A stretch of DNA of 64,000 nucleotides, taken from positions 22,444,001 to 22,508,000 of the forward strand of contig CM069138.1 in assembly GCA_035221665.1 (NCBI GenBank). Direction: 5' to 3'. Both the position numbers and the translations under genes were made by a program. This document shows, piece by piece, positions 4,470 to 37,165 of the stretch. The DNA is from Okamejei kenojei. Its lineage: Eukaryota. The notes beneath the pieces were generated by a model. That model made no database searches. It saw nothing but the letters and a program-made list of their open reading frames with translations, and had not been told where the DNA came from. The first letter of the stretch is position 1; every line of letters begins with the position of its first letter.

Positions 4470-4513
4470 CTGTAACTGTCGAATCAACTGTGGTCAGTTC
4501 TTCAGTAGAGTTC
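4470..4513 (-). CDS. Cytoplasmic mini-exon 1 (G)NSTEELTTVDSTVT
   Basis: TTTCGCTAG| ... CAG|GTAAAA, 44 nt; phase 2-1 matches the TM exon. Confidence 0.7.
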
Positions 4514-9786: not shown

Positions 9787-9934
9787 CCTTCGGCTTTAAA
9801 TATGTGTTGAAAGCACACCCATTTTTTCATATAGCACACTGCTGTTGCTAAGATGCTGAATAAGAGGACGAATACCAGGACACAGGCTACAATACCGCCC
9901 AAGATTTTCAAAGACAACTTTTCATATGGTTGTT
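9787..9934 (-). CDS. Transmembrane exon (E)QPYEKLSLKILGGIVACVLVFVLLFSILATAVCYMKKWVCFQHIFKAE(G)
   Basis: Not in the ORF track; read by hand. Acceptor TTTTTCAG|, donor GG|GTGAGT, 148 nt, phase 1-2. About 25 hydrophobic residues followed by a KK stop-transfer signal. Confidence 0.88.
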
Positions 9935-13738: not shown

Positions 13739-14083
13739 CAATTACAATGAGCTGGGTTCCATTCCCTCTGATATCTCCCCACACTGTGCAGTAATAGACG
13801 GCAGTGTCATTGAGCATCACGTTTGTGACATTCAGGATGAAGCTGTTGTTGGAGGTGATTTTGCACGGCTGGAACCGTTCAGTGAAGCCTGGTCTCCTTC
13901 GTACGCTGCCTCCTGCCTCGTGTGTTAAAACCCACTCCATGTCCTGCCCGGGTAGTTCTCGGTACCAGTGGACGTCAGTGTTTCCCACTTCAGAGTTCTC
14001 CATGGAGCACCATAACCGTGCCGTGTCATCCTCAGTGACACGCTCCAGCCTCGGGAATTGGATCAGGATCGGAGAATTTGCAT
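13739..14083 (-). CDS. Ig V-set (VJ-joined) exon V6, type A, membrane-proximal
   Basis: ARLWCSM...WYRELPGQ...DTAVYYCTVWGDIRGNGTQLIVI; TTAAAG| and G|GTAAGT; 345 nt. Confidence 0.92.
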
Positions 14084-15928
14084 CTTTAATGGGAAAATAT
14101 GTCTTCTTAAAAAAAAACACCTAGCACAACCATGCTTAAAGAGTGCACAGAAGCTAACACTAAATTATTAGAATTGTTTTAGTCATTCTATGGGTGGGAG
14201 ATTGCAACCTTCTCGTAGTCCACCCTGTTTCGATTAATGCAATCAACCTGACGTGCACAAACAAATAGATTAAGTGTTTTGTTAGGCTGTGCATGGTGTA
14301 CGCAAGAAGAAGAAGTCTTTCTATAGCATGCAATATGGAATTCTTTTGATTAGGGCTCTAGATGTGTATCGCACAGGAATGGGCTCTTGTGATACTTAAA
14401 ACCAGAACAATGTTACTGAGTTCAGTGATCCTGCAATATTATATAACCTGTGCATACAGGTTATGATAGGTTTGCTCGTGCTGCTCAAGAGAGTTTAAAC
14501 TAGTAAGGGTAAACAAAAATGCTGGAGAAACTCCGTAGATGCTGCCTCACCCGCTGAGTTTCTCCAGCATTTTTGTCTACCTTCGATTTTCCAGCATCTA
14601 CAGTTCCTTCTTAAATTAGTGAGACATGGGTTTGGGACCCAGAATGACAGCAGACTCATATGCTGAAAATGGAACAGGCAAGCCTAGTGGAAGCATTGGC
14701 AGAGATGGGAGGGGGAGCATGAGAGGACCGGTAGGTTTAACTGCATTTACTTTAAAGCAAGAAGCACAGCAAGTGAGAGGGATGTTGAGAGTGTAGATCA
14801 GCAGACAAGATTATGAGAGGAAGCGTGGATGATGGAAGAGCTGTAATCTATAATTAGTTTATTATTAAGTGGGGCATTTGGAATATATCAGGACAGGGTG
14901 GAGTCAAAAGGTTTTTGTAAAGGAAATCATATTCCACAAATCAGCTAATGTTTTGAGATTGTAGTTAGCAGCACAGATAAGGGAAAACTAGCTGATGTGC
15001 ATTTGGACTTTCAGAAAGCATTTGACAAGCTACAAAGATGGAGCAGATAAAAAAAAAACACTCACATATACCTGTCTTTCCACTCGCTATTCATTACACA
15101 CCCCTAGCCCCTCTGGGTACCTATATCTGCCATATCACCTCCACCTTCCGGTTCCGATCTACCACACCATCCACCCTCGGGTTCTACATTTTATTTTTCA
15201 CCTTCTTTCCTTATCAGATTTCATTATTTGTCATCTTTTGTCTTCTCCGCTTATCACCTCCAGTCTTTTTTAATATCTTCCCCTATCCCTCCTGCACCTC
15301 ATTCATCTGACAATCAACCCTTCCATATCTGAGTCTACCTGTCACTTGCAAGCTCTTGCCCCAACCCTGTTCCCTCACCTCTTTCCACCAGCTCTCTCCT
15401 ACTCCATCAGTCTGAAGAGGTCTTGACCCGAAACATTGTCTGTCCATTTACATTCCCAGATGTTGGCTGACCTGCTGAGTTCCTCTGGAACTAATATCTA
15501 CATTGGAGATCCTTGGACTATCTTTGATTGGACTTCCCTGGCTTTATCTAGCACTAAACGTTAATCACATTATTCCCTTTATCGTGTGTCTGTAAACTGT
15601 GGATGGCTCAATTGTAATTATGTATTGTCTTTCCGCCGACTGGTTAGCCCACAAAAGCTTTTTACTGTACTTTGGACACGTGACAATAAATTAAACTCAA
15701 ACTCATAACCTCAAGCTTGGCTTTTTCCGAAGAATTTGATAATATTTCTTCTCCCATGTACTTATACATTTTTTGGATTTTATGAGCTAATCTATTCCTT
15801 TTAACAACTCATATGAAGTTATCCTCTTTCTTTCCTTACTCTGATTTGTTTCAGGAGGGTTATGGGCCAAAAGCAGGCAGATGGGACTTGTGTAGCTGGG
15901 ACATGTTGGCTGGTGTGGGGAAGTTGGG

Positions 15929-18705
15929 CAGAAGAGACGAGGAGTTACAGAGAGGTGGTCACTCCAAAACCACAGGAGGCAGACAAATGGGTCACGGTTA
16001 GGAGGGGCAAGGGGCAGAGGCAGGGACTAGAAAGTACCCTGGTGGCTGTACATCTTGACAATAAGTACTCCTGCTTGGGTACTATTGCTGGGGACAGCCT
16101 ACCTGGAGGTAGCAACAGCGACCGGACCTCCGCTACAGAGACCGGCCCTGTTGCTCAGAAGGGTAAGGAAAAGAAGAGGAGGGGAATAGTAATAGGGGAC
16201 TATAGTTAGGAGGTCAGATGGGCGATTCTGTGGACGCAGTCTGGAGACTCGAATGGTAGTTTACCCCCTTGGTGCCGGGGTCTGGGATGTGTCTGAACGT
16301 GTCCAAGATATCCTGAAAAGGGAGGGAGAGGAGCCTGAGATCGTGGTGCATATTGGTACCAATGACATAGGTAGAAAAAGAGAAGAGGTCCTGAAAGGAG
16401 AATTTAGGGCGTTAGGAAGAGAGTTAAGGAAAAGGACCGCAAAGGTAACAATCTCGGGATTACTGCCTGTGCCAAGGTGCAGATAGCTATTAATGACTAT
16501 GATATAGTTGGGATCACGGAGACTTGGCTCCAGGGTGACCAAGGCTGGGAACTGAACATCCAGGGATATTCAATATTCAGGATGGATAGACAGAAAGGTT
16601 AAGGAGGTGGGGTAGCGTCACTGGTTAGAGAGGAGATTAACGCAATAGAAAGGAAGGACATTCGCTTGGAGGATGTGGAATCGATATGGGTAGAGCTGCG
16701 AAACACTAAGGGGCAGAAAAGGCTAGTGGGGGTTGTGCACAGGCCACGTAACAGTAGTAGTGAAGTTGGGGTTGGTATCAAACAGGAAATTAGAAATGCA
16801 TGCAACAAAGGTAAAACAGTTATAATGGGTGACTTCAATCTACATATAGATTGGGTGAATCAAATTGGCGGGGGTGCTGAGGAAGAGGATTTCTTGGAAT
16901 GTATGCAGGATAGTTTTCTAAACCAACATGTAGATGAACCAATGAGAGAGTAGGCTAGTCAATACTGGGTATCACTGGGGAACAAGGACATGGCAGACCA
17001 ATTGAATAATTACTTTGATTCTGTCTTCACTAAGGAAGACATAAACAATCTGCCGGAAATGGCAGGGAACCGGGGATCAAAGAAGATGGAGGAACTGAAT
17101 GAAATCCAAGTTAGCCTGGAAGTGGTTGTGGGTAAATTGAATGGATTAAAGGCCAATAAATCCCCAGGGCCAGATAGGCTGCATCCCAGAGTACTCAAGG
17201 AAGTAGCCATAGAAATAGTGGATGTATTAGTGATAATTTTTCAAAACTCTTTAGATTCTGGAGTAGTTCCTGAGTATTGGAGGGTAGCTAATGTAACCCC
17301 ACTTTTTAAAAAAGGAGGGAGAGAGAAAATGGGGAATTACAGATCAGTTAGTCTAACATTGGTAGTGGGGAAACTGCTAGTCAGTTATTAAAGATGTGAT
17401 AGCAGCACATTTGGAAAGTGGTGAAATCATTGGACAAAGTCAGCATGGATTTACGAAAGGTAAATCATGTCTGACGAATCATACAGAATTTTTCGAGGAT
17501 GTAACTAGTAGAGTGGATAAGGGAGAACCAGTGGATGTGTTATATCTGGACTTTCAGAAGAGATTAGTATACAAACTTAAAGCACACGGTATTGGGGGTT
17601 CAATATTGATGTGGATAGAGAACTGGCTGGCAGACAGGAAGCAAAGTGTAGGAGTAAACGGGTCCTTTTCAGAATGGCAGGCAGTGACTAGTGGGGTACC
17701 GCAAGGCTCAGTGCTGGGACCCCAGCTATTTACAATATATATTAATGATTTGGACGAGGGAATTGAATGCAACATTTCCAAGTTTGCGGATGACACGAAA
17801 CTGGGGGGCAGTGTTAGGTGTGAGGAGGATGCCAGGAGGCTGCAAGGTGACTTGAATAGGCTGGGTGAGTGGGGAAATACATGGCAGATGCAGTATAATG
17901 TGGATAAATGTGAGGTTATCCACTTTGGTGGCAAAAAAAGGAGGGAAGACTATTACCTGAATGGTGGCCGATTAAGAAAAGGGGAGATGCAACGAGACCT
18001 GGGTGTCATGGTACACCAGTCATTGAAAGTAGGCATGCAGGTGCAGCAGGCAGTGAATAAAGCGATCGTAGTTAGTATTCATAGGAAAATGATATGCATA
18101 TAGGAGCAGGGAGGTTCCACTGGAGTTGTACAGGGTTTTGGTGAGACCACACCTGGAGTATAGTGTACAGTTTTTGTCTCCAAATCTGAGGAAAGACATT
18201 CTTGCCATAGAGGGGGTAACGAGAAGGTTCACCAGACTGATTCCTGGGATGTCAGGACTATCATATGAGGAAAGATTGGATAGACTCGGTTTGTACTTGC
18301 TAGTCTTTAGAAGATTGAGGGGGGATCTTATAGAAACTTACAAAATTCTTAAGGGGTTGGACAGGCTAGAAGCAGGAAGATTGTTCCCAATGTTGGGGAG
18401 GTCCAGAACAAGTGGTCACAGTTTAAGGATAAGGGGGAATTCCTTTAGGACCGAGATGAAGAAAACATTTTTCACACAGAGAGTGGTGAGTCTCTGGAAT
18501 TCTCTGCCACAGAAGGTAGTTGAGGCCAGTTCATTGGCTATATTTAAGAGGGAGTTAGATGTGGCCCTTGTGGCTAAAGGGATCAGGGGGTATGGAGAGG
18601 TACAGGATACTGAGATGAATGATCAGCCATGATCATATTGAATGGCGGTGCAGGCTCGAAGGGCCGAATGGCCTACTCCTGCACCTATTTTCTATGTTTC
18701 TATGT
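15929..18705 (+). mobile_element. CR1-clade LINE with internal deletions
   Basis: IVIGD and HIGTND (ORF1), MGDFN, GVPQGSVLGP, KFADDTK; 3' tail (TTTCTATG)n. Confidence 0.9.
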
Positions 18706-19025
18706 AGGTGCCTGTTTCCTCGCATTATGACTATTTGACTTTATGCTATTGATTGGTAATATATTCCATCACTGACAACTCAAACCCAAAGGTTTGTTCA
18801 TCCAAAACCCATTTGCGGAGACTTTTTACACTTTTGATTTTTGTTTCCTTGTATTCCTCTTTTCACATACTTTTCTATTTCCTAGCTATTGCACATTACA
18901 TGCCAAGAACTTCTCCACTCTCTGTTTTACTGGGAGTGGTACAGTTCCAATGTGTCTGTGAGTCATTGCGTGAAGGTTGAAGTGTAAGCTGCTGTTATCG
19001 TCAGTGCAGGCAAACAATGACTTAC

Positions 19026-19373
19026 CAGTTACATTGAGCTGGGACCCTGCTCCATAGATGTAACTCCACACACTGCAGTTGTAGACAGCAGTATCATTGA
19101 TGGAGACATTGGCGATGGTCAGAATGTAACTGTTGCTCATGGCATTCCTGAAAGACTTAAAGCGGTCAGAGATACAGCCGGACCTGGTGACGTTGCCATC
19201 CACGAAGTGGCTCATTACCCACTCGCTGTTTTTCCCAGGTCGCTGCTGGTTCCAGTGGACGTCAGTGTCATTCACACTGGCATTGTGCAAGACACATTGC
19301 AACTGCACAGTTACACCCTCTGCCACCTTGCTGATTGATGGAGATTGGATCAGGACCGGATCATCCAGGGGAT
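19026..19373 (-). CDS. Ig V-set (VJ-joined) exon V5, type B
   Basis: Differs from V3 at 2 internal residues (SISK/SVSK, RSGC/RSSC); CACAG| and G|GTAAGT; 348 nt. Confidence 0.92.
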
Positions 19374-21268
19374 CTGTGTGAATATACATGGAACTCAATG
19401 GATGTTATCATATCTCTCCAGCATTTAGTGTGTAAGTTTCTAAAATTTGAATACCATCACATGCTTCCCAGTGAGGGTCAGGATAATTGAAGAGTAAGAT
19501 TATTGAGGATGTCAGACTTATGCATGTTCTCCAGACTTGCTGGCTGACCTTTTAAATTACTCCAACAACTTGTGCCTTTTGTTTTTTAACATATTATTTG
19601 CCTTCCAAACTGCTCATTCTATCTACATGTTGATCTTGTTATTTTGTGCATAAGAACACCCAGATTATTTTGACATTACAGTCACACAACATTCAAAAAA
19701 ATACTTTGCATGTCCATTTTTCCTGCAGAAGCGAATGATTATATTTTTACAAGTTATAGTCCATCTGGCTTGTGCTGATCTTTATACTTGTCTGTGCCCC
19801 CTGCAGCCTCCTCACATGTTGCATCACCTACCAACTAACCTGGATATGTTATACTTCGTCTCCTCATCCTTGATTGTGAACAGTGAGGGTCCCAGTACCA
19901 AACCCTGCACCACCTCTCAGCTTGAATACCTGCAGTTTATTCCAGTTCCTGCAGGAGATTTAACCAAGATATTCTCCCATCTATGTGTCTGCTTGTGATG
20001 AATAATGGTCAATCTCGTTTACAGCTACTGTCTCCGCATGGCTCATTGAAAAACCCAACCCTACTTTGCTAGTCACAAACATCTAACAACGTGAGCTTTA
20101 AAAGATTTCTCACCCAAGATGTCCATTTGATACATCCACGTTGACTCTGTTCTTACACCTACCCTATTCTTCTGCCTTTGTGTCGGATTCTTATCCTTCC
20201 TTTACTGCCAACGGTGCAATGAGTTATCTATTTCACTCGAACATGGAAATTATATTGAGGGGGAATTTCAACCCTGCTTCACACTATTTAACGTGGATTA
20301 GGGGCCCATATCAACACAATGCAGATGAGCAAAGACTCAGCTCCAGCCAACAATGAACTGTCAGCCTGAGGGAGGGCACGAACACAGGTGATCAATGTGT
20401 AACCTGTTTCTTCGCAGCTAGTCCCAGATCCCTGGCCTTGGATCCAGTGACAGCGTTGTTGTTGCTGCCTCTGCGCTGTACGTGGTACAAGTGTCAGTGA
20501 TTCCTGGTTGAAAACAAGCCTGAAGGTTCGCTGGTCGGCGGGACTGGGAACCTGTCAAAAGGCTCATCTGTTGGCATGACTGGGAGAGAGTTGGAGACGT
20601 CAGACACAAGGAGCAAGGGCCGGTGTGAGGTTGAACCAGGGAAATGTCTCCAGCGCCTTCAGTTAGGCTGCTGGATGCACCCCCGAGACACAAAGATGGC
20701 CGGGCGAGGAGAGGAGAGGGACATTGGTTTGTGGGAACTACTCCAGTAGTGGGCTGAGCGGATGAGCGGATGTTGCACTTTGAATGATGGAGCCAAAACA
20801 TGGCGGCACCAGCATGTGCAATACATGCAAAAAGAATTTCACTGCACAGTTGCATATGTGACAAATAATGAACCATTGAACCATTGAAATAAGGAGGCAA
20901 CATTAGTTCATCTAAAGCCATGACAAGTTGGTGTTCTGCTCTCCTGTACCTTATCTCAAACAGCTGCGAGCAATGCCCTGCTTTTACACTGCGCACTGAA
21001 CAATGTTTCTAGTTTTCTCTACAATGAAGAACACACTGCACATTGAAATTTGTTTTCCACAACCAAGACATGACATACAGGTCAGTTACCATATCAGTGC
21101 TCTCACCATTAGTGAGGGGCCACAATGTTTTGGTCTCCAGAATCAGGGCTCCAGTATGATCTCCTTACTCTTTTGGTAATTCCAGTACGTGTGCCAATTC
21201 AAGGGAAGTGAATTACACCCAATATAGTTACACATAGGTGAATAAAACCAATTATAATTTGTACTCAC

Positions 21269-21613
21269 TGGTTACGTTGAGCTGGGTTCCATTCCCTCTG
21301 ATATCTCCCCACACTGTGCAGTAATAGACGGCAGAGTCATTGAGCATCACGTTTGTGCCCATCAGGATGAAGCTGCTGTTGGAGGCCTCTCTGAAAGGCT
21401 GGAACCGCTCAGTGAAGCCTGGTCTCCTTCGTACGCTGCCTCCTGCCTCGTGTGTTAAAACCCACTCCATGTCCTGCCCTGGTAGTTCTCGGTACCAGTG
21501 GACGTCAGTGTTTCCCACTTCACTGTTCTCCATGGAACACCTTAACCGTGCCGTGTGACCCTCAGTGACACGCTCCAGCCTCGGGAATTGGATCAGGATT
21601 GGAGGATTTGCAA
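21269..21613 (-). CDS. Ig V-set (VJ-joined) exon V4, type A
   Basis: ARLRCSM...DVHWYRELPGQDMEWVL...GFTERF...DSAVYYCTVWGDIRGNGTQLNVT; TTTCAAG| and A|GTGAGT; 345 nt. Confidence 0.92.
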
Positions 21614-22319
21614 CTTGAAAGGGAAAATATCAATAGATGAACACTAATGTTGGGGTTGCTAAATAATTTATGTGTTTCAACATAAAATACATTAATCCTT
21701 TGACATTAGATAACCTCATGTAAAAGTGATGCTAACATAGTTAGCATCTGATATTAAAATCCTGATTGCAGCTGATTGCAACTTTCTCCCTGTTTACGAT
21801 TATCTTTCACTCTCTCTCTCTCCCTTCCTCCAGTGTTGGGAGGTGTTGCCTCACAATGGGGATTTCATTTTTCATTTAGCTTTGTTTAGCCGTCTATTTG
21901 TTGCACTCTACACAGAGATAAGCAGATCTCTGTATATTGGAGGAATAATATACAGTCTTGGGATGCGTCTGAACATGTCCAAGATATCCTGAGAAGGGAG
22001 GGAGAGGAGCCTCAGGTCATGGTGCATGTTGGTATCAATGACATAGGTGGAAAAAGAGAAGAGGTCCTGAAAGCAGAATTTAGGGTTAGGAAGAGAGTTA
22101 AGGAAAAGGACCGCAAAGGTTACAATCTCAGGATTACTGCCTGTGCCACGCGACAGTGAGAGTAGGAATGGAGCGAGGTTGAGGATAAATGCGTGGCAGA
22201 ACGACTGGGTGCAGAGGGCAGGGATTCAAGTTTCTAGATCATTGGAACCTCTTTTGGGGAAGGAGCGACCTTTATAAAAAGGACGGGTTGCACTTGAACC
22301 CGAAGGGGAACAGTATCCT

Positions 22320-25113
22320 TTTTTTTTTGATAATATTTGTATTGTCTCTGATTTTGAAATATAGGACTAAATTTTATGTAATTAAAAATACGTAATACTA
22401 GTAAAACTTTTATGATATTCATTATATTTTCATACTGTTAATAATATTTGTATTATCATTGATTTTAAATTTAAAATTATATATTTTATATAATTGAAAA
22501 TACATGATACTAATAATACTTTCATAAAGTTAGTGATATTTATATTCGTACTGATATTAAAAATTTAAGATTATGTGTTTCTATACTTTTTTCTAATTTT
22601 TTATATAAGTATGAAAAGATAGAGAGAAAAAGTGTGAAAAGTTTGATGGAGAATGGAATATTACTCATTATTACCCATATCACACATCTGAGCTATGCTT
22701 TTACAAAATTGTATTCCCTTAGTTTTGAGTGCCAGCAGGGTTAACAGGGGAATATTTTCTTGTATTCCCCTTTCTTGCGAACGCCTATGGACTTTACGTG
22801 TTAAAACAGCGGTAAATATAGACTTATATTCCCCTGGTCTCACATCCGGGAACTTGGCAATGTGGCGCTGCGTGGGAAATTTAGAATTTGTTCTCGACAA
22901 AACAAGCAAAATGGCAGCCTCCTGCGAGAAGAGGTTCGCGACTTTTGACGAACAGCAATTTGACGAGATTTTACAAAACAAAGACGCGCAGAACACGAAG
23001 AAGGCAACGAAACAAGCAGTAACAATATTCAAGGAATATTTGATGGAGAAGGGTCTAGATGTCGATATTCAAACGGCAGACAGGAAGACTTTGGCGTCCA
23101 TTTTGGCTAAATTTTACGTGGAAGTCCGCCGAGCTGAGATGTTGAGATTTTCCTCTAGATGTCTGATATGGGTAATAATAACAATATTGACTGTCCTTAT
23201 CTTCGACTCGGGCAATATGAATCTACTTCAGGCAATATATGTCGTATCCCCCTCAAGGCCAGTCAATATTCTATTATTAATCCATCCTTGGAGATATATT
23301 CATGATTTATTATATATATTTCTTCATCTATTCAAATATTCAGGTCTCAGTCAAGTCCTCGCGCCGAACCATTATGACCCTGTAAATATTTAATATATGG
23401 AGACCAAATCCTTCTGAAGAGATCTAACCTGTCCATTAGGACAAGCCTCAATCTCTCCAGATGAAGTGTCTCCGACATTTCTATATTCCACATTTTGATT
23501 GTTGGGGATGTAGGGCCTTTCCAAAATTTTAATATTAATTTTTTCCCAATTATTAAACAATAGTCGATAAAAGTTCTTTGGTTCATTGTTATTAGTTGGT
23601 CAGTTTCAAGTATTCCAAGTATTATTAACTTTGGATCAGGAGTCAAAGTTATATTGACAACATTCGAAATTATCTTAAATATTTCATTCCAGTATTTTTA
23701 CAATTTTTATACAGTTAGTGAATGAGTGTGACAAATTTGCTTCTGAGATTTGACATTTATCACATATAGAGGATATTTTTGGGAAAATATTATGTAATTT
23801 AGATTTGGAATAATGTAATCTATGTAGTATTTTAAACTGTATAAGGGAATGTTTAGCATTTAACGAACAATGATGTATATGTTGTAAACTTTCATCCCAT
23901 ATTTCTGGTCTTATAATTTGGCCTAATTCATTTTCCCAAGACTGTCTATGTATTTCTGTTGATGGGACATCACTTTCCAATAAAAAATTGTATTTATATG
24001 ATATCATTTTTTCCGTATTTGGGTGTTTATTCAAGCATTCATCTAAAATTTCTGTCTTTCTATTTCTAAGTTCTTGTGTATTTGCAGAAGCATAATTTCT
24101 GATTTGTAAATATCTAAAATATTCTTTATTGTGTAGTCCATAAGTTTGTTGTAACTCTTGAAATGAGAGAAAAGAGTTTTCCTTATAAAGATCACCCATC
24201 TTAGAAATTCCTTTATTTCTCCATTGTAAAAAAGCCTTATCCATCATTGAAGGTTTGAACGTAACATTATTGGCGATGGTAAGACCTAATGGTATAAATT
24301 TTAGTTTTAATGTTTTCTTTATTTGTTTCCAGATGCGGATTCCGTTTTCTATTATCGGATTTTCACTATAAATTATCTTAGCTACGTAAGTGTTAGCAAA
24401 TATTATAGAGCTAATTTCAAATGGAGAACAATCTTCTTTTTCCATATTTAACCAATTTGGTTTATTATCTATTTCTTCTAGCCAAAAATTCATATTTTTA
24501 ATATTGACTGCCCAGTAATAAAACATAAGATTTGGTAATGCTAATCCTCCATTTATTTTAGGTTTACATAAATGTTTTTTATTTATTCTATGGCTCTTGT
24601 AATCCCAGATAAAGTTAGTAATTAGAGAATCTACTTTTTTGAAAAAAATTTTAGGGAGATATATCGGAATTAATTGAAATAGATATAATAATTGTGGGAG
24701 AAAAATCATTTTTATTGCATTAATTTTACCTAACATTGAAATAGGTAAGCTTTTCCAGTATAAAATATTCTTATTTAATTTATTCAATAATGGAGGGAAA
24801 TTAAATTTAAATAAAGAGTCAAATCTTTTTGTAACGAAAATCCCAAGATATTTAATATTTTCGTTTGTTATCTTAAAAGGGAATTGTTGTAATATATGTA
24901 AATTATTCACCGTTATTGGCATGAGTTCACTTTTATTCCAATTGATACTGTATCCTGAGAGAGATCCGAATTCCGTTATTAGTTTTAACAAATTTCGGAT
25001 ACTTGTTTCTGGTTCAGTGATGTAAAGTAATACATCATCTGCATATAAGGAGATTTTATTTTTGGTATCTCTAGTATCATATCCATGTATTTCCGGGTGT
25101 AATCTCAGGGACA
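22320..25113 (-). mobile_element. 5'-truncated L1/Tx1-clade LINE with poly(A) and about 14-bp TSD
   Basis: ORF 23684-25144 has SLYADDVLLY, KYLGI, GGLALP and a C-terminal CxxC...H...C. Poly-T at 22320-22328. TSD GGGAACAGTATCCT (22306-22319) / GGGACCAGTATCCT (25114-25127). Confidence 0.88.
22667..23279 (+). mobile_element. Non-autonomous Crypton-like element fragment inside the L1 3' UTR
   Basis: Encodes NTKKATKQAVTIFKEYL...LASILAKFYVEVRR, resembling the N-terminus of Crypton/KCTD1/ZMYM-type tyrosine recombinases. Bounded by ATTATTA direct repeats. Confidence 0.6.
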
Positions 25114-28100
25114 GGGACCAGTATCCTGGCGGGGAAATTCGCAAAGGCTACTGGGGAGACTTTAAACTAGAATGGTTGGGGGGAGGGACTCAAATAGAGA
25201 AAGCTAGTAGACAGCTGTCTGAGGCAAGAGGCAGAGAAATGAAGTACTCAGACCCAACATGTAGGGGGGAAAGAAGAAAAAAATAATAAACAGAGAATAA
25301 GAAGTGGTTGGTTTCTTAAATGGGTGAGCGGAGAGAAAGAGAGGTATAAAATGAGGGTAGATTTAATTGGTAACAAGGTGAAAAGTAAAAGTGGCAGGCA
25401 GACAAACCCAGGGCAAAAATCAAAAAGGGCCACTTTTCAACATAATTGTATAAGGTGTAAGAGTGTTGTATAAACAAGCCTGAAGGCTTTGTGTCTCAAT
25501 ACGAGGAGCATTCGTAATAAGGTGGACGAGTTGAAGGTGCTGATAGCTATTAATGACTATGATATAGTTGGGATCACGGAGACATGGCTCCAGGGTGACC
25601 AAGGCTGGGAACTGAACATCCAGGGATATTCAATATTCAGGAGGGATAGACAGAAAGGTAAAGGAGGTGGGGTAGCGTCACTGGTTAGAGAGGAGATTAA
25701 TGCAATAGAAAGGAAGGGCATTAGCTTGGAGGATGTGGAATCGATATGGGTAGAGCTGCGAAACACTAAGGGGCAGAAAAAGCTAGTGGGAGTTGTGCAC
25801 AGGCCACCTAACAGTAGTAGTGGAGTTGGGGATGGCATCAAACAGGAAAAAAGAAATGCGTGCAACAATGGTAAAACAGTTATAATGGGTGACTTCAATC
25901 TACATATAGATTGGATGAATCAAATTGGCAGAGGTGCTGAGGAAGAGGATTTCTTGGAATGTATGCGGGGTAGTTTTCTAAACCAACATGTAGATGAACC
26001 AACGAGAGAGCAGGCTATTCTATACTGGGTATTCGGTAATGAGGAAGGGTTAGTTAGCAGTCGTGTTGTGCGTGACCCCTTGGGCAAGAGTGATCATAAT
26101 ATGGTTGAGTTCATCATTAGGATGGAGAGTGACATAATTAATTCAGAAACAAGCATTCTGAACTTAAAGAAAGGTAACTTTGAAGGTATGGGACGTGAAT
26201 TGGCCAAGATAGACTGGCAATTGATTCTTAAATGGTTGACAGTGGATGTGCAATGGAAGGCATTTAAAGATGGCATGGATGAACTACAACAATTGTTCAT
26301 CCCAGTTTGAGAAAATAATAAATCGGGGATGGTAGAGCATCCGTGGATAACAAGGGAAATCAGGGATAGTATCAAAACAAAAGATGAAGCATACAAATTA
26401 GCCAGAAAAAGCAACCTACCATAGGACTGGGAGAAATTCAGTTCAGCAGAGGAGGACAAAGGGCTTAATTAGGAAAGGGAAAATAGATTATGAAAGAAAA
26501 CTGGGAGGGAACATAAAAATTGACTGCAAAAGTTTTTATAGCTATGTGAAGAGAAAAAGATTAGTTAAAACGAATGTAGGTCCCTTGCAGTCAGAAACAG
26601 GTGAATTGAACATGGGGAACAAGGACATGGCAGACCAATTGAATAACTACTTTGGTTCTGTCTTCACTAAGGAAGACATAAATAATCTGCCAGAAATAGC
26701 AGGGGACCGGTGGTCAAATAAGATGGAGGAACTGAGTGAAATCCAGGTTAGCCGGGAAGTGGTGTTGGGTATATTGAATGGATTAAAGGCTGATAAATCC
26801 CCAGGGCCAGATAGGCTGCATCCTAGAGTACTCAAGGAAGTAGCCACAGAAATAGTGGATGCATTAGTGATAATGTTTCAAAACTCTTAAGATTTTGGAG
26901 TAGTTCCTGAGGATTGGAGGGTAGCTAATGTAACCCCACTTTTTATATAAGGAGTCAGTGAGAAAATGGGGAATTACAGTCCAGTTAGTCTAACATCGGT
27001 AGTGGGGAAATTGCTAGAGTCACTTATTAAAGATGGGATAGCAGCACATTTGGAAAGTGGTGAAATCAATGGACAAAGTCAGCATGGGTTTACAAAAGGT
27101 AAATCATGTCTGACGTATCTGATAGAATTTTTCGAGGATGGAACTAGTAGAGTAGATCAGGGAGAACCAGTGGATGTGTTATATCTGGACTTTCAAAAGG
27201 CTTTCGACAAGTTCCCACATAAGAGATTAGTATATAAATTTAAAGCACATGGTATTGGGGGTTCAGGATTGATTTGGATAGAGAACTGGCTGGCAGACAG
27301 GAAGCAAAGGGTAGGCGTAAACGGGCCCTTTTCAGAATGGCAGGCAGTGACTAGTGGGGTACTGCAAGGCTCAGTGCTGGGACCCCAGCTATTTACCACA
27401 TATATTAATGATTTGGATGAGGGAATCGAATGCAACATCTCCAAGTTTGCGGATGACACAAAGCTGGCGGGCAGTGTTAGGTGTGAGGAGGATGCTAGGA
27501 GGCTGCAAGGTGACTTGGATATGCTGGGTGAGTGGAAAAATGCATGGCAGATGCAGTATAATGTGGATAAATGTGAGGTTATCCACTGTGGTGGCAAAAA
27601 AAGAAGGGTAGACTATTACCTGAATGGTGGCCGATTAGAAAAAGGGGAGATGCAAAGAGACCTGGGTGTCTTGGTACACCAGTCATTGAAGTACGCAATT
27701 CTTAAGGGGTTAGACAGTCTAGATGCAGGGAGATTGTTCCCGATGTTTGGGCGGTCCAGAACAAGGTATCACAGTTTAAGTATAAGGGGGATTTCCTTTA
27801 GGACCGAGAAGAGGAAAACATTATTCACACAGAGAGTGGTGAGTCTCTGGAATTCTCTGCCACAGAAGGTAGTTGAGGCCAGTTAATTGGCTATATTTAA
27901 GAGGGAGTTACAATTGATGTGGCCCTTGCTAAAGGGATCAGGGGGGTATGGAGAGAAGGCAGGTACAGTATACAGAGTTGAATGATCAGCCATGATCATA
28001 TTGAATGGCGGTGCAGGCTTGAAGGGCCGAATGGCCTACTCCTGCACCTATTTTCTATGTTTCCATGTTTCTATGTAAGAACCTGTTTCCACGCATTATG

Positions 28101-28398
28101 ACGATTTGACTTTATGCTATTAGTTGGTAATATTTTCCATCTCTGACAACTCAAGCCCAAAGGGTTGTTCATCCATAACCCATTTGCAGAGACTTTTTAC
28201 ACTTTTGATTTTTGTTTCCTTTTACTCGTGTTTTCACATACTTTTCTATTTCCTAGCTGTTGCACTTTACATGCCAAGATAACTTCTCCACTCTCTGTTT
28301 TACTGGGAGTGGTACAGTTCCAATGTGTCTGTGAGTCATTGCGTGAAGGTTGAAGTGTAAGCTGCTGTTATCGTCAGTGCAGGCAAACAATGACTTAC

Positions 28399-28746
28399 CA
28401 GTTACATTGAGCTGGGACCCTGCTCCATAGATGTAACTCCACACACTGCAGTTGTAGACAGCAGTATCATTGATGGAGACATTGGCGATGGTCAGAATGT
28501 AACTGTTGCTCATGGCATTCCTGAAAGACTTAAAGCGGTCAGAGATACAGCTGGACCTGGTGACGTTGCCATCCACAAAGTGGCTCATTACCCACTCGCT
28601 GTTTTTCCCAGGTCTCTGCTGGTTCCAGTGGACGTCAGTGTCATTCACACTGGCATTGTGCAAGACACATTGCAACTGCACAGTTACACCCTCTGCCACC
28701 TTGCTGACTGACGGAGACTGGATAAGGACCGGGTCATCCAGGGGAT
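28399..28746 (-). CDS. Ig V-set (VJ-joined) exon V3, type B
   Basis: VQLQCVL...DVHWNQQRPG...SDRF...DTAVYNCSVWSYIYGAGSQLNVT; CACAG| and G|GTAAGT; 348 nt, phase 1-1. Confidence 0.92.
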
Positions 28747-28813
28747 CTGTGAGAATATACATGCAGCTCAATGGAAGTTATCATATCTCTCCAGCATTTA
28801 GTGTGTAAGTTAC

Positions 28814-31800
28814 TAAAATAGTAAGATTAAATGAGAACTTACCAGTTCGAAGTTTGATCTGTATTTTATGAGGAGTTACGATGAGGGATTACGTGAAGAC
28901 CCCGTCCAGCACGCATGCGCGACATTTCTTCAAAGCAGCGGTGTGGATTCACAGAAAAACACAACAATTGAAATAAATATAGTCAAGAAAAAAATAAGAA
29001 ACTTAATTACCAGTTGATCTGTATAATAGAGGGTGGGAGCGGAGGGCACGTAATCCCTCATCGTAACTCCTCATAAAATACAGATCAAACTTCGAACTGG
29101 TAAGTTCTCATTTAATCTTACTATTTTACTTCGGAGTCACGTGAGTGACTACGTGAAGACTTCAAAGCTCTGTGAATCCGAACCGTGTACCAGCTCATGC
29201 TTCACTCACTGCCTGAAGACCTTAGAGGGAGGAAGCATGTTATACAATCAACAATAACCTGTTTGTGAACAAAAAAGGTTTATTAATAACAACAAAAAAC
29301 AGAGAGCTCCCCCGGGCTTAAATTAAATATTATCTGCAGACTCTAAAATTCTGTCTGCAAATGTAGCAGGCTCCGCCAGCGGCTTATTATAAAACCTTTG
29401 GAAAGTTCTTTCCGAGGACCATCCTGCTCTGGCCAGAATATGGTCCATAGGCACATCCATTTGCCTAGCCGCCGACGTAGATGCAGCCCTGGTGGAATGA
29501 GATTTGTACACATTAGTATAGATTCCCGCGGACTTAAGCACCTGCTTGAGCCACCTTGAAATGGTTTGGCTCGTCACCTGACCATGAGGCTTCTTGTGGC
29601 TTATCCATAAGGCTTTTTCTCTCCCTCTTAAGTTATATGTTGTGTCTATGTAGTTGGCGAGATGGGTCTTGGCACACAACCGTGGGTCAGGTGAATATGC
29701 CCGGAACTCCATAACTGGAGGCGTGGTACCTGGTCTAGATTGTTTGACCAGCCCCTGAATGTGAAATGTGATACAGTCCAATGACTCTGTCATGCTGTCC
29801 AGCCTCAGAAGGTGGAGGGACTGTACCCTTTGAGCTGACACTAGAGCCATGAGCATGACTGATTTCAGTGTAAGTTGTTCCAGAGTAAGTGACCTGGGTG
29901 GTGGCCATCCCCTAAGGTAACGTCAGTACTATGCTGACATCCCAGATCTGAGTGTACCTAGGCCTAGGGGGATTGGTGTTAAAAAATGCCCCTCATGATT
30001 TTGACCACTAGTGGATGGGACCCCAAAGTCAGTTGTCCTGCTGCTGGAACCAAATAAGCTGACAACGCACTCCTGGCTGTATTAATGGCGCTGTAGCTGA
30101 GTCCTTCCGATGTAATCCAAGCAGAAACTCCACAACACTGGTGGCTGTAGCTGTGGTGTAGGTAGTTCCTGTTTTGGAGCAATACCGTTCCCATTTTCTT
30201 ATATTGGTCAGGTATTGTCTCCTGGTGGACTCCCGGTGAGATGCGGTCATCATGTTGATGGCGTCCTCAGACAGTCCCAGGCCCAGTAGAGGGTCTTTTT
30301 AGAATCTGCAAGCCAGGAGATTGACTCTGTCATGGCACGGGTGACTAATGCCTGACACTGGGTGGATTAATAACTGTCGACTGCTGGGGAATTCCAACGG
30401 TGTTTCAACAGCCATGTCGAAAGCCACTGGGAACCATGGCTGTGTAGGCCAGTCAGGTATTATCAAGATTCCTGAAGCGGAATCCAATTGAATCTTGCGT
30501 AATACCCGACTGATGAGGCAGAAGGGAGGAAAAGCATAAAAGAACATTTTCCCCCAATGCAGCGAGAATGCATCAACTGCTGCTGCCTCAGGGTCTGGTT
30601 CCCAAGCGACATACGTTGGTACCTGGTGATTCAGCCTGGATGCAAATAGATCGATATCTGGTGTGCCATATTGCTTTGTAATTTCAGCAAACACTTTGGG
30701 ATTTAACATCCATTCGATGTTATCATTAAATCTACGTGACCTGGTGTCTGCCACTGTATTTTGCTTACCTGGAAGGTAAGTTGCTGATAACCAAATATGC
30801 CTTTCAACACACCATTGCCAGATTAGGTTGGCCAAATTGTCACACGATATCGACTTTACACCACCCATGTGATTGATATAAGCCACCACCGTGGTATTAT
30901 CTAGTTGCAACCGGACCATGTGCATGATGCGTATTACATGAATATGCTTTTAAAACCCATAAAACGCACCCAACATTTCTAAATAGTTGATACCCCGTGT
31001 CTGTAGGCAAGATGATTCAAATTTACTCCATCTGCCCCCTGTGCTGGATTGCATGTTAGTTGCTCCCCAGCCCAAAGCACTGGCATCCGTTTGAATGGTT
31101 AATACTGGGTTGGTGATCATTATGGGGACTGGAGCTGAGTCTTACATTCCTCGCCCACCATTGTAACTCTGGAATGGATTTAGCAGTTAAACTCATAGCT
31201 CGGTCAAAGTGACCTGAGTTTTGCTTTAGTGCATGCACTTTAGCTCTTTGCAAATTTTGATAGTGCAAAGGCCCAAATTGTACAGCTGGGAAAGCTGCTA
31301 CCATTTTGCCAATAACTCTAGCTACTTCCCGTATGGTTGGCTGATGTTTATTCATGAGTTTGTTGCATGATAGCGCCAAATTCTGATGCTTTCCCCTTCG
31401 GCAGAGTTACAATCATGCGAACAGTAATCTATCGTAAATCCAAGATAGTCCATGGCAGTGGACGGTGTAAGATTGGATTTTTCTGGATGTATGACAAACC
31501 CCAAAGTTTTCAAACAAAACGTTTGGTGGCTGCGACTGCCAAAATAGCTGTTTTCCCTACTATTAAAAATGTCGTCTAAATACGCCATGACTATATGCTT
31601 TTGTTTCCTCAATAATGCCAAGGCAGGTTTTAAGATTTTAGTGAACAACCTTGGAGCAGAGGTTAGCCCATTTGGTAAGGCTTTATATTGCCATAGCTGT
31701 TTCATCCAGATAAATTTTAAATATTTTCGATGGTCCTTGTGTATGGGTACTGAGTAGTAGGCATCTTTTAAAATCAATGCTTGCTAGAAAGTACCCCTAG

Positions 31801-33675
31801 AAACAATAGTCTGGCTGTTTCAAAAGTATCCCATCTTGAAATGTATATACCTGACAGACTTGTTCAAAGTAGTTAAGTCAATGATGATGCGTCGTCCACC
31901 ATCTTTTTTGATTTTAGTGAAAATATTAGACACAAATTCCAAAGGTTCATGTTTTGTTCTTTCAATGACACCTTTAGCTTGTAATCTCATCAGTTCAGCT
32001 TGACCCTCTTGTTTTTCCTTGACTGAGAGGGTGAATACCCTTTTGGGTATATGCTGAACTGGTGGAAAATCTTTATGGACAAAGTCAATTTTGTAGCCAT
32101 GAACGCTGCTGAGTATATACTTGTCATTAGTGATGGATTCCCATGCATCCAAAAAACAAGTGCAATCTCCCCCCTGTTAGCACAGAGCCCCTACTGCACA
32201 TATGCTGAGAGGAACCAGACCCACCTACCTCCATGGTTATTGGTGCTTCTTCTGCCTCTTCGCTGGGTGATGAGGCGTCTGCTGGGCTGTAGAGGGTTGA
32301 TGTTGATCTCGATGTTGTTGGGGGTGGCGCATTTTCCATGGGGTCCGCTCTGGGCCCTGGCCTAAAAAAGGCTTACGGGGAATGGTTGCGGACCCCGAGC
32401 TTTCACCAGTCCCATAGTGTGGTCGACGACTGGTGGACGCCATGGGGTACTGCCGCCTGGGTTTGTTGGGTCTGCTCGGTCCCAAACCTGCCCTCACGAG
32501 ACCAAAGGTCTTGGATTCTTCTTCCAGTGTCTTTCACCTTTTTTGGAAGGTCTTTCCCAAAGAGCAGAATAGGAGGTTCTGACCCCGGTGTTTTGCAGAG
32601 TCCCGCAAATTTAGGGTTGAGGGCAGGCTTGATAATCTCCTTTCGCAAATTATTTATCTCATATTGAGTGGTGCACAGCAGAGCTAATGTGTCTTGCTGA
32701 TTTGTGGAGATGTCCGCACCATCAATGGACCGAGCATAAGATGTTATTCCTGCAGTCAGGAATTTAAGGATCTTCTGGAGCTTCAACTCCAGGTTTCTGA
32801 TGTTCTGCCCCAAATGTCCCCAAATTTGGCTATTGACAGCAGGTACATTCAAAGATGTACAATTTCCTGGGGCTGTATATAGTTGAAGAGCCTCATTGAC
32901 CACTTGTTCTTGTAGGGGTTTAGAGGACAGGTGGTTAATGCTGGCTGCAAGTTTCGGCTCTAATGGCCGACCCGCTTGTGGAATGGCCACGTAGCGGTTG
33001 ACCACACCCAGCAGCTCTTCCTGTTCCTGTACACCCTGCGTACTCCCGATATCTTCAGCCAGTGACCCCCTCTTCTTGACCAGCCCAGACCTGGTCGCCA
33101 ATGCTGCCTTCAAAAGAAGGTGAAGCAATGGCCAGTGCCGTAAAAAGGCACTGCTGGAGTGCCCAGAACTCCCTTGGCGAGGCTGCTGCTGCTCTCTCAG
33201 CAGATCTCGCTGGAGCAATTGGCTCCATAAGCCGTTCCAATGCGGCTTAGGCGGCTGCCTGCGTGCTCTCGAGCGGTAAGGCATCTTCATCCCGAAACGT
33301 CGGACACTACCGCCCGGGTTCCGGCTGTAGGTACCTCCAGCCCGCTGCTCAGGCAGCACTAGCGGTGCTGGGTCTCGGCTCGGTAGTTATAACCGCCGCC
33401 TCTTGCCCCCCCTCCAAAGAGCATTCCTCAACGGAGGACGAACGGGGGCGAGCTGCAGACTTCTTTCCTCGGGCCTTGCTCATTCTCCTGGAACACAAGA
33501 CCACAGAGAGAAAGACACACGGCCACGGTAAACTTACCTGTCGGCCCGACTTTCAATTTGTAGCGGGAGCGCCTTGAACTCCCGTTCGTCGCGGTGCACT
33601 GCATGAACGCTAATGTCGCGCATGCGTGCTGGACGGGGTCTTCACGTAGTCACTCACGTGACTCCGAAGTAAAAT
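28814..33675 (-). mobile_element. Full-length DIRS retrotransposon (gag, RT, RNase H, methyltransferase-like domain, tyrosine recombinase), frameshifted
   Basis: RT: LKDAYY, LPNGL, YLDD (31352-32152). RNase H/MT: DNTTVVAYINHMGG, DLFAS...YAFPPF (30299-30925). YR: HSTR...AGW...FY (29323-29856). Gag-like 32403-33359. ITRs plus ICR at about 29047-29159. Confidence 0.93.
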
Positions 33676-35505
33676 TTGAATACCATCACACACATCCCAG
33701 TGAGGGTCAGGATAATTGAAGAGTAAGATTATCGAAGATGTCAGATTTATGCATGTTCTCCGGTCTTGCTGGCTGACCTTTTAAGTTATTCCAACAACTT
33801 GTGCCTTTTGTTTTTTAACATATTATTTGCCTTCCAAACTGCCCATTCTATCTACATGTTGATCTTAAGTTATTTTGTGCATAAGAACACCCAGATTATT
33901 TTGACATTACAGTCACACAACGTTCAAAAAAATACTTTGCATGTCCATTTTTCCTGCAGAAGCGAATGATTATATTTTTACAAGTTATAGTCCATCTGGC
34001 TTGTGCTGATCTTTATACTTGTCTGTGCCCCCTGCAGCCTCCTCACATGTTGCATCGCCTACCAACTAACCTGGATATGTTATACTTCGTCTCCTCATCC
34101 TTGATTGTGAACAGTGAGGGTCCCAGTACCAAACCCTGCACCACCTCTCAGCTTGAATACCTGCAGTTTATTCCAGTTCCTCCAGGAGATTTAACCAAGA
34201 GATTCTCCCATCTATGTGTCTGCTTGTGATGAATAATGGTCAATCTCGTTTACAGCTACTGTCTCCGCATGGCTCATTGAAAAACCCAACCCTACTTTGC
34301 TAGTCACAAACATCTAACAACGTGAGCTTTAAAAGATTTCTCACCCAAGATGTCCATTTGATACATCCACGTTGACTCTGTTCTTACACCTACCCTATTC
34401 TTCTGCCTTTGTGTCGGATTCTTATCTTTCCTTTACTGCCAACGGTGCAATGAGTTATCTATTTCACTCGAACATGGAAATTATATTGAGGGGGAATTTC
34501 AACCATGCTTCACACTATTTAACGTGGATTAGGGGCCCATATCAACACAATACGGATGAGCAAAGTCAGATCCAGACACCAATGAACTGTCAGCCCGAAG
34601 GTGGACATGAACACAGGTGATCAGCGTGTAACCTGTTTCTTCGCAGCTAGCTAGAACCCTGGCCTTGGATCCAGTGACAGCGTTGTTGCTGCCTCTGCGC
34701 TGTGGGTGGTATAAGTGTCAGTGATTCCTGGTTGAAAACAAGCCTGAAGGTTCGCTGGTCGGCGGGACTGGGAACCAGTCAAAAGACTCATCTGTTGGCA
34801 TGACCAGGAGAGAGTTGGAGACGTCAGACACAAGGAGCAAGGGCCGGTGCGAGGTTGAAGCAGGGAAATGTCTCCAGCGCCTTCAGTTAGGCTGCTGGAT
34901 GCACCCCCGAGACACAAAGATGGCCGGGCGAGGAGAGAAGAGGGACATTGGTTTGTGGGAACTACTCCAGTACATCGAGCTGTGGACTGAGCGGATGTTG
35001 CACTTTCAATAATGGAGCCAAAACATGGCGGCACCAACATGTGAAATATATGCAAAAAGAATTTCACTGCACAGTTGCATATGTGACAAATAAAGAACTA
35101 TTGAACCATTGAACAATTGAAATAAGGAGGCAACATTAGTTCATCTAAAGCCATGACAAGTTGTTGTTCTGCTCTCCTGTACCTTAACTCAAACAGCTGT
35201 GAGCAATGCCCTGTTATCACACTGAGCACTAAACAATGTTTCTAGTTTTCTCTACAATGAAGAACACACTGCACATTGAAATTTATTTTACACAACCAAG
35301 ACATGACATTCAGGTCAGTTACCATATCAGTGCTCTCACCATTAGTGAGGGGCCACAATGTTTTGGTCTCCAGAATCAGGGCTCCATTATTATCTCCTTA
35401 CCTTTACAGTAAATTCCGGTACACTGAGCCAATTCAAGGGAAGTGAATTACACCCGATATAGTTTATGCATAGGTGAATAAAAACCAACTATACTTTGTA
35501 CTCAC

Positions 35506-35853
35506 TGGTTACGTTGAGCTGGGTTCCATCCCTCTGATATCTCCCCACACTTGTGCAGTAATAGACGGCAAGAGTCATGAGCATCACGTTTGTGACCGTC
35601 AGGATGAAGCTGCTGTTGAGGCCTCTCTGAAAGGCTTGAACCGCTCAGTGAAGCCTGGTCTCCTTCGTATACGCTGCCTCCTGCCTCATGTATTAAAACC
35701 CACTCATGTCCTGCCCTGGAGTTCTCGTAACCAGTGGACGTCAGTTTTTTTCCCACTTTGGCGTTCTCCATTGGAACACCGTACTGTGCCGTGTGACCCT
35801 CTGTGACACGCTCCAGCCTCGGGAAATGGATCAGGATCGGAGGATTTATGCAA
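35506..35853 (-). pseudogene. Ig V-set exon V2 (type A), frameshifted as assembled
   Basis: Colinear with V4 (21269-21613) and splice sites intact, but with roughly a dozen 1-2 nt indels and an early in-frame TAA. Either a pseudo-exon or consensus error. Confidence 0.8.
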
Positions 35854-36073
35854 CTTGAAAAGGAAATATCAATAGATGAACAGTAATGTTGGGGTTGCTA
35901 AATTCTTTATGTGTTTCAACTTAAAATACATTCATCCTTTGACATTAGATAACCTCATGTAAAAGTGATGCTAACTTGGTTAGCAACTGATAATAAAATC
36001 ATGATTGCAGCTGATTGCAACTTTCTCTCTCCCTGTTTCAAGAGTATCTTTTCACTCTCTCTTTTCTCTTTCA

Positions 36074-36128
<55 letters not shown>
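36074..36128. repeat. (TC)n microsatellite
   Basis: Read directly; much shorter at the paralogous site near 21810. Confidence 0.95.
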
Positions 36129-36130
<2 letters not shown>

Positions 36131-36802
36131 AATGGGGATTTCATGTTTCAGCTAGCTTTGTCTAGTCGTATATTAAGTCCTTTGTTGCACTCTACACAGA
36201 GATAAGCAGATCTCTGTATATTGGAGGAAGAAGGATGTATGGAAATAGTACAGATAGATCATTGAGGTGGTGAAGTTAGTTTACTTTACTGTAGAGATGC
36301 AGCATGGAAACAGGTCCTTCAGTCCACTGAGCCCATGCTGACCATCGAGTAATTGATCTCAGTGTGGCAGACGGTGCAACTAATAGTGACTGTGCATAAA
36401 CTGTGGATGGTTCGATTGTAATCATGTTTAGTCTTTCCGCTGACTGGTTAGCAAGCAACAAAAGCTTTTTCATTGTTCATCGGTAGACGTGACAATAAAG
36501 TAAACTCAAGCAAAGTTATTGTAAATGAAGAAACTATCCTCCTGATACTGGAATGTCTTTACATTCATCTGTTCACACTGTGTGTACCTCTCCGGCAATG
36601 CCAAAGTACATCCTCCATCCTGGTCTCAGAACGCAGTGCCGAGTGATCTGCATTATTCAGTTAAAAAATAATTTTGGCCTATTTTCATTCTCCAGTTTAC
36701 AGTGTGAACTTGTAATGATGTCGGTCTCCGTAAAACTGCCAACATGACATCATGATTCCTCATGATGTTAGGATTGGAAATAGAACCAATTTATATACTC
36801 AC

Positions 36803-37165
36803 TGGTTACATTCAGCTTGGTTCCATTTCCAAATATCTTCCCCCAAATGCCACAGATGTAATCAGCAGAGTCAGCAATCATCACCTCTCTGATGGTCAGT
36901 GAGTAGCTGTTACTGGCGTCGTCCCTGGAAAGCTGAAATCGATCGGAGAAGCCTCGTGACCTGTAAGTTTTGCCATTCACATTAAGACTGAGTTTGATTC
37001 CTTTTTCAGTTAATTCATTACGTGAGTTGTACCAGTGAACGTCGAATTTGTTCACAATGTTATTCACATTGGTGCTGTTCAGGACACACCGTATCTTCAC
37101 TGTTTCACCTTCACGCACCACCAGAGCTCCTGGGGATTGGATCAGGGATGTGTTTGCCTTTAGAC
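36803..37165 (-). CDS. Ig V-set (VJ-joined) exon V1, divergent B-like type
   Basis: TVKIRCVL...DVHWY...GFSDRF...SYSLTI...DSADYICGIWGKIFGNGTKLNVT; acceptor CCCACAG|, donor A|GTGAGT; 363 nt, phase 1-1. Confidence 0.92.

Follow-up and report, generated by a model that had tools for sequence, protein, structure and literature searches.

What kind of protein is encoded by six immunoglobulin V-set exons lying in a row, and do its domains pair with one another or stack? This question is raised by a 64,000-nucleotide stretch of the genome of the skate Okamejei kenojei (assembly GCA_035221665.1, contig CM069138.1, positions 22,444,001 to 22,508,000; called the window below and numbered from its first letter), in which an original prediction, made from the letters alone, had seen an ectodomain of two alternating domain types, A and B. 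The order of the exons, their splice phases, the transmembrane (TM) exon, the layout found throughout the family and the internal duplication of one A-B unit were established in the present analysis. The predicted product is probably one non-rearranging type I receptor, likely inhibitory, in which a variable head, predicted to bind ligand, would stand atop a glycosylated head-to-tail rod.

Gene model and domain types

A homologue-guided search of the window and its flank gave the following exon model, in which VJ stands for variable and joining parts within one exon and CDR for complementarity-determining region.

55773..55821, minus strand: leader exon, MFALIFSTLTLFLCAVG, found by tblastn with the N-termini of homologues (82-94% identity), with a GT donor and a phase 1 end
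36803..37165, minus strand: V1, type C head VJ exon of 363 bases, with a 12-residue CDR1 and F118 kept
35506..35853, minus strand: V2, type A VJ exon by its DNA, with 13-14 insertions or deletions (indels) of one or two bases in the assembly
28399..28746, minus strand: V3, type B VJ exon of 348 bases, with 7 N-glycosylation sequons
21269..21613, minus strand: V4, type A VJ exon of the internal subtype, 345 bases
19026..19373, minus strand: V5, type B VJ exon of 348 bases, with 98% protein identity to V3
13739..14083, minus strand: V6, type A VJ exon nearest the membrane, 345 bases
9787..9934, minus strand: TM exon, without a charged residue in the membrane
4470..4513, minus strand: cytoplasmic exon 1, with TVDSTV at the site of the first tyrosine motif of many orthologues
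86..129, minus strand: cytoplasmic exon 2
about 2.2 kb past the window start (contig about 22441.7 kb): last exon, with motifs of the immunoreceptor tyrosine-based inhibitory (ITIM) and switch (ITSM) types

Six-frame translation bore out all six V-set exons of the original prediction, on the minus strand and at the positions it had given, and five of the six reach the Pfam V-set score, V2 being the exception. The leader is split, its remainder being supplied by the V1 exon. All five intact V exons have AG and GT ends, phase 1 on both sides and a length that is a multiple of three, so that duplication or skipping of any one of them keeps the reading frame, and the J motif lies inside each V exon with a GT donor directly after it. 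The closest homologues of V6 are found in skates (Amblyraja, Leucoraja and Rhinoraja, 85-90%).

A rearranging locus with V gene segments was ruled out, since no recombination signal sequence (RSS) was matched in the window (0 RSS-12 and 0 RSS-23, with up to three mismatches allowed) and splice donors follow the J motifs. Separate single-V genes were ruled out as well, because the homologue-guided search found one leader and one TM exon only in the window. The V exons are predicted to be one non-rearranging receptor gene of the order leader-C-A-B-A-B-A-TM-tail. A perfect RSS heptamer, CACAGTG, was also observed over the Cys-Thr-Val codons of A exons (at about 13781-13787 and 21310-21316, minus strand); it was rejected as a functional RSS, having no nonamer, and was taken as chance.

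Four sequencing runs (X1, X19, X20 and X22) were taken as RNA-like from their exon-bounded pieces and one GT..AG joint. Contig pieces of these runs stop exactly at 19026 and 21269, matching predicted exon ends, and a contig of run X1 contains a spliced B-to-V6-type joint with GT..AG ends.

Concerning the domain types, V4 and V6 carry WYRELPGQ and YYCTVWGDIRGNG, and V3 and V5 carry WNQQRPGK and YNCSVWSYIYGAG, as the original prediction had given for types A and B respectively. The assignment of V2 to type A stands by its DNA, but its motifs are unreadable in one frame, the gaps being counted against the other A exons. In all five intact domains of the window seven residues separate the second Cys from GxG, and W stands at +3 and I at +6. 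The seven-residue spacing is kept in 300 of the 303 scorable domains of 127 homologues (predicted gene models including isoforms, thus not independent), which is not chance; I at +6 does not vary in B and is present in 91% of A, but in only 47% of C. What had been called a CDR3-like loop is, in IMGT terms, an FG hairpin of six residues, fixed in length and consequently no diversity loop.

V1 had been described as closer to B and labelled B-prime. Trees were built from 85 rows (genome exons together with 17 of 75 proteins), 33 rows and 41 rows. The first two group V1 with V3 and V5, but its identity is 45% to both V3 (B) and V4 (A). Type C forms a clade of its own across sharks and rays (support 100/99), and B comes out as its sister (91/85 with 85 rows, 95/86 with 33 rows); this sister grouping is insecure, as approximately unbiased (AU) tests also keep A+B and A+C (p 0.27). 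V1 appears to represent a third, ancient type, loosely sister to B, and the B-prime label seems fair yet unproven.

CDR1 has 12 residues in 63 of 67 C domains and 8 in A (171 of 182) and B (62 of 62), while CDR2 has 7 in 166 of 182 A and 58 of 62 B domains. The full FGxG was seen in type C only, which keeps F118 and a hydrophobic residue at 103. Two cysteines are present in 160 of 183 A domains; B domains have two (44 of 62) or three (18 of 62), and none has six. A third Cys (SxCIS) was observed in the C'' region of batoid B domains, as in V3 and V5, and an extra Cys (QPCK) in the D strand of V6, in the terminal A exons of three C-A-B-A-type genes. These extra cysteines of batoid B and terminal A domains might form inter-domain or inter-chain disulfides.

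Duplication and integrity of the array

Self-BLAST of the window revealed two copies of a unit comprising an A exon, an intron, a B exon and a CR1-type long interspersed nuclear element (LINE), one of which carries a further insertion.

25534..36232, minus strand: duplicated unit 1
16283..21948, minus strand: duplicated unit 2
about 28820-33669, minus strand: degenerate DIRS-type element in the V2-V3 intron, in unit 1 only (Pfam reverse transcriptase (RT) and tyrosine recombinase matches at 29326-33386)

The junction of the duplication lies near 21950, where intron-3-like sequence passes into intron-1-like sequence, and the introns of the two units diverge by 3.7%, about as much as those of paralogues. 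Since two adjacent paralogues with the same TM exon have the layout C-A-B-A-TM, the extra A-B unit is the result of an internal tandem duplication, and the six-domain array arose late, when a gene with four domains was enlarged locally.

The commonest layouts among the 127 homologues are C-A (26), C-A-B (13) and C-A-B-A (11), in counts that exclude the sialoadhesins P0128-P0129, and the successions of domains are A before B in 55 cases, A before A in 47, B before A in 26, C before B in 1 and B before B in none. Mobula has C-A-B-A-B and Carcharodon A-B-A-B-A, implying that a similar expansion recurred. The members of Callorhinchus milii (P0268 and P0269) are of the form head-head-A-TM, with extra cysteines in their A domains (YxCC...VC), and no B domain was present among the Callorhinchus matches examined; the existence of these members makes the family older than the holocephalan split.

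The two-domain ancestor of the original prediction was borne out in part. The A/B module is real and old, and an ancestor of the head-A form is a fair proposition, C-A being the commonest layout and Callorhinchus having head-head-A; on the other hand, the succession of two A domains is common and the six-domain array is late. The simplest history would lead from head-A to C-A-B-A in early elasmobranchs, followed by local growth. In such a history C and B would stem from one head domain, C-A giving C-A-B-A in early elasmobranchs and then C-A-B-A-B-A in this skate gene. The alternation of A and B is ordinary exon duplication. Alternating two-domain modules produced by internal duplication are likewise described for bowfin DICPs, with their D1a-D2a-D1b-D2b order (excerpts of bioRxiv 10.1101/2021.06.11.448072), and the C2-C9 repeats of UrIg2 are a precedent for modules by internal duplication (excerpts of PMC12227049). 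The domain families of both differ from that of the skate, and DICP domains are not among the close matches.

The assembly has frameshifts in both V2 and the last exon, and several other observations also weigh against a working six-domain receptor. The V3-to-V4 joint, which is diagnostic of six domains, does not figure among the joints listed for the runs (15 of 180), in which LINE reads dominated; the B-to-V6-type joint of run X1 may derive from V5 or from a paralogue, and the pieces stopping at 19026 and 21269 may likewise come from a paralogue; the C-A-B-A-B-A layout occurs in 0 of the 127 homologues; and the runs, which differ from the assembly in many places, may come from other individuals, with paralogous contigs contributing. 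The six-domain form might consequently not work, with V2 and the last exon truly broken, or with the extra A-B unit an artefact, and the four-domain paralogues would be the ones expressed. Compared with the paralogues, the last exon has four one-base insertions, some of them after the stop, and a 12-base in-frame insertion, in addition to the gaps of V2.

However, substitutions between V2 and the A exon of a paralogue amount to only 2.7%, below the 3.7-5.2% of the introns, and the indels of V2 are clustered: 17 events fall within 400 bases, where the 1.8 kb below has 0-4 per 200 bases. At 35528 and 35719 the indel of the assembly is absent from all the read depth in the contigs of four runs, and one X1 contig fits a V2-like stretch with one substitution and four gaps. 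The tails of both neighbouring paralogues are open (VLYADI...TEYAAI). As to an artefact, the two units are apart by their intron divergence, their distinct junction and their different insertions, as in a real duplication. Judged from the other samples and the paralogues, the indels of V2 and the last exon are probably consensus errors of the assembly, and a six-domain form that is broken or artefactual is considered unlikely.

Pairing of domains or a rod

The original prediction had left open whether adjacent A and B domains pair like VH and VL within one chain or stack as a rod. The distance from the end of the G strand to the next L/I-x-Q is 6-7 residues in 114 of 118 matched junctions, and three of these residues belong to the next domain, leaving a true linker of 3-4 residues. 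By comparison, monomers of single-chain Fv (scFv) have linkers of about 15 residues, linkers of 8-12 lead to diabodies and linkers below 5 to higher multimers (excerpts of PMC4887975). The residues of an scFv-like interface (Q44, L/P50, Y103 and F/W118) are incomplete on both sides, A being without F/W118 and B without Y103. At 118, the Phe/Trp position of J, A has mostly S, D or N (S in 59%), with E or K at 44, and B has N or S at 103 (N in about half), with NCS in 25 of 40 domains. Sequons average 6.4 per B domain, 3.0 per A and 2.8 per C.

The best AlphaFold model, that of a Leucoraja A-B tandem, reached a predicted local distance difference test score (pLDDT) of 90 and a predicted template modelling score (pTM) of 0.71. 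It fits single V domains to about 1.5 A, but scFvs only to 10-13 A root mean square deviation (TM score about 0.45), and no solved two-domain arrangement was found close to it, the nearest being end-to-end chains at 7.4-8.7 A. A fold search with a four-domain model gave no whole-chain match, and a search of the ESM Atlas gave generic V-set clusters only. The rod is the better of the two readings. Less favourable to it are the front faces of A and B, whose conservation (H40, W52 and W107; Q44 in B) exceeds what a passive spacer would obviously require, the pLDDT of 61-71 in the other four of the five A-B models, and the pTM of 0.34 in the four-domain model.

Pairing could also take place between two chains, with A and B meeting front to front as a natural diabody or triabody that would make a stable dimeric stalk. 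Such an arrangement would agree with the formation of dimers and higher multimers by scFvs whose linkers are below 12 residues (excerpts of PMC4887975), with the position of A before B in 55 of 59 cases and the absence of two successive B domains, with the conservation of H40, W52, W107, Q44 (B) and Y118 (B) on the front faces, and with the strong purifying selection on B (ratio of nonsynonymous to synonymous change, dN/dS, 0.13 in four exons). It is difficult to reconcile with the loss of the J Phe/Trp and the E or K at 44 in A, with the N103 of about half of the B domains, which is usually part of an NCS sequon and would lie in the middle of the interface, and with the many members in which B is missing altogether (the 26 C-A layouts and the A-A runs) or the domain count is odd. 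A complex prediction with two copies of the A-B tandem, run with no alignment, scored 0.23 against a mark of 0.32, a value that speaks neither for nor against such pairing. Taken together, pairing between chains is held to be quite unlikely.

Fv-like pairing of neighbours inside one chain, for which the alternation of two V types and the V-set fold with J-like ends had spoken, is very unlikely and has hardly any chance of being right, given linkers of 3-4 residues where about 15 are needed (excerpts of PMC4887975), the lost interface residues, the glycosylation of B and an A-B model that does not superpose on scFvs. Linkers too short for such pairing were the finding by which the original prediction itself would have given it up.

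Head, tail and relatives

The gene lies in a cluster with at least 8 intact head exons. Among 8 intact C exons, 33 extra states fall into the 37 columns of the C-C'' strands and the FG loop against 14 in 73 columns, a difference reached in 0 of 20,000 permutations, although these front-face columns were chosen after the alignment had been seen. The reverse pattern was observed in 13 A exons, with 10 extra states in 33 columns against 43 in 72. Pairwise dN/dS was highest in C (0.86), followed by A (0.59) and B (0.13), broken exons having been left out, among them a C exon at 23.14 Mb that contains a stop. Two points speak against a fast-changing head: taken as a whole, C has a dN/dS under 1, and its conservation across species (63%) is only slightly below that of A and B (67-70%).

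A TM segment is present in 95 of the 127 homologues, and among these 95 the ITIM-type motif was found in 59, the ITSM-type motif in 38 and a membrane charge was flagged in 1; the tails of the neighbouring paralogues have VLYADI and TEYAAI. V1 would bind a fast-changing ligand through its front (GFCC') sheet, A and B would act as spacers, the length of the stalk shifting by duplication or skipping of the symmetric phase-1 exons, and the tail tyrosines would, to judge from their motifs, recruit phosphatases of the SHP-1/SHP-2 type. Such recruitment is established for ITIM/ITSM receptors, for example PD-1, SIRP-alpha and NITRs.

A word-based search, of little power where relatives are distant, listed 120 matches, of which 118 were elasmobranch members of the family and 2 were lizard sialoadhesins. 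The family spans sharks, rays and a chimaera, and the RefSeq names of its members ('SIRP-like', 'pIgR-like' and 'IGSF3-like') are automatic and inconsistent. SIRP, PD-1, Siglec and receptors of the pIgR/MDIR type likewise combine a head V domain, an Ig stalk and an ITIM and ITSM tail, and among them pIgR and the MDIRs have several tandem domains. The stalk domains are C1 in SIRP and C2 in Siglecs, and the MDIR domains of the clearnose skate are reported to be of the CD300/TREM-like I/C2 set; the domains of the present family are V-set and nearest to Ig light chains. PRARP reportedly has ITIM/ITSM tails too, but PRARP/VJC1 consists of one VJ and one C1 domain, while the skate gene joins V6 to the TM exon without a C1 exon.

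With the NITRs of ray-finned fishes the family shares a clustered multigene organisation, single-exon VJ domains without rearrangement, ITIM tails and a variable head on a conserved membrane-proximal domain (excerpts of bioRxiv 10.1101/2021.06.11.448072). The single-exon VJ with a J-like GxG motif, by which NITRs are recognised, was found in the skate family, but the six-Cys membrane-proximal I domain was not, the number of cysteines being 2-4 and mostly 2. The family further differs from NITRs in having 1-7 tandem V domains and almost no activating forms with a charged TM segment among those seen. Evidence for NITR homologues in cartilaginous fishes is cited as lacking in the excerpted text of bioRxiv 10.1101/2021.06.11.448072. 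PRARP/VJC1, UrIg and UrIg2 also have a non-rearranging single-exon VJ and a split leader (excerpts of PMC12227049 and PMC10751288), but in UrIg and UrIg2 the VJ is followed by several C1 domains, and UrIg is a secreted protein (excerpts of PMC12227049), whereas the skate family has V domains only and a TM segment. Without a six-Cys I domain the family falls outside that definition of NITRs, and without C1 outside those of PRARP and UrIg; its members would be further germline VJ inhibitory receptors that fit none of these definitions. No description of the family was found in literature full text, and Fu et al. 2019, Ohta et al. 2019 and Cannon et al. 2006, or their supplements, may list members.

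The nearest V domain in this genome is of the sigma-2 type, with 35-42% identity, while IgH, lambda-like and T-cell receptor (TCR) exons do not exceed 34%. Sigma-2 is also named sigma-cart, NS5 or type I. In a HMMER search of 1.84 billion representatives, the top single-domain matches outside the family were V-C1 light chains of sharks and rays, P0150 being the best (120 bits), and VJ-C1 proteins of coelacanth and shark came lower. L043-L045 and P0150 are presumably sigma-cart; the sources call them lambda- or kappa-like. CDR1 and CDR2 of sigma-2 have 8 and 7 residues, and sigma-2 is germline-joined in gar, turtle and coelacanth (excerpts of PMC5985310). The 8/7 lengths of A and B equal these, but lambda-like exons have them as well, so that they are not unique, and type C has a CDR1 of 12. 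The family also differs from sigma-2 in its absence of C1, its membrane-bound form, its inhibitory-type tail, its tandem V domains and its six-residue CDR3. In the 41-row tree none of five placements was rejected by the AU test, with p values of 0.34 for the family with sigma-2, 0.41 for the family with TCR alpha/delta and 0.19 for light chains without the family. The nearest V relatives of the family seem to be sigma-2-type light chains, but the trees do not place it.

It is possible, and offered tentatively, that a germline-joined sigma-2-type VJ exon, or its immediate unsplit ancestor, was put before an inhibitory TM segment and tail more than 400 million years ago and was then multiplied to give head and stalk. 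If true, sharks and rays would hold an NITR/KIR-like cluster of their own, which would be a direct remnant of the VJ gene once invaded by RAG or else a part of the adaptive system put to new use. Few clustered inhibitory receptors are described in cartilaginous fishes, and the skate family would be such a cluster, made of non-rearranging VJ receptors with ITIM/ITSM tails. Its members are candidates for 'self' receptors of the natural killer or myeloid type in the oldest jawed vertebrates, and, as a single-exon VJ lineage near sigma-2 light chains, they would widen the search for the gene split by RAG.

Concerning the surroundings of the cluster, one flank (contig 23.15-23.35 Mb) contains a CHRNA2/4-like gene and butyrophilin-like C exons, together with a GULO-like match that is weak (E 0.058), and it resembles the CHRNA2-GULO interval of human 8p21; in the left flank, no recognisable neighbour gene was found in the 140 kb below 21.69 Mb. 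A further member of the family (L008/L095, contig 21.684-21.693 Mb) has a divergent head, called type D, an A domain and then a TM segment, preceded by an open frame of 1,888 codons that encodes a very long stalk rich in Asn, Gly, Ser and Glu. Its orthologue is P0045 of Rhinoraja, and length was gained here in another way than by domain repeats. The remaining repeats of the window, whose intron fragments are presumably L1-type and CR1-type LINEs and a Tc1-type transposase, are as follows.

58281-61690, plus strand: second, degenerate DIRS-type (tyrosine recombinase) retrotransposon, by Pfam RT and recombinase matches
23350-25147, minus strand: LINE and transposase fragments in introns, by Pfam
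15800-18700, 25474-28060 and 41361-42025, plus strand: LINE and transposase fragments in introns, by Pfam

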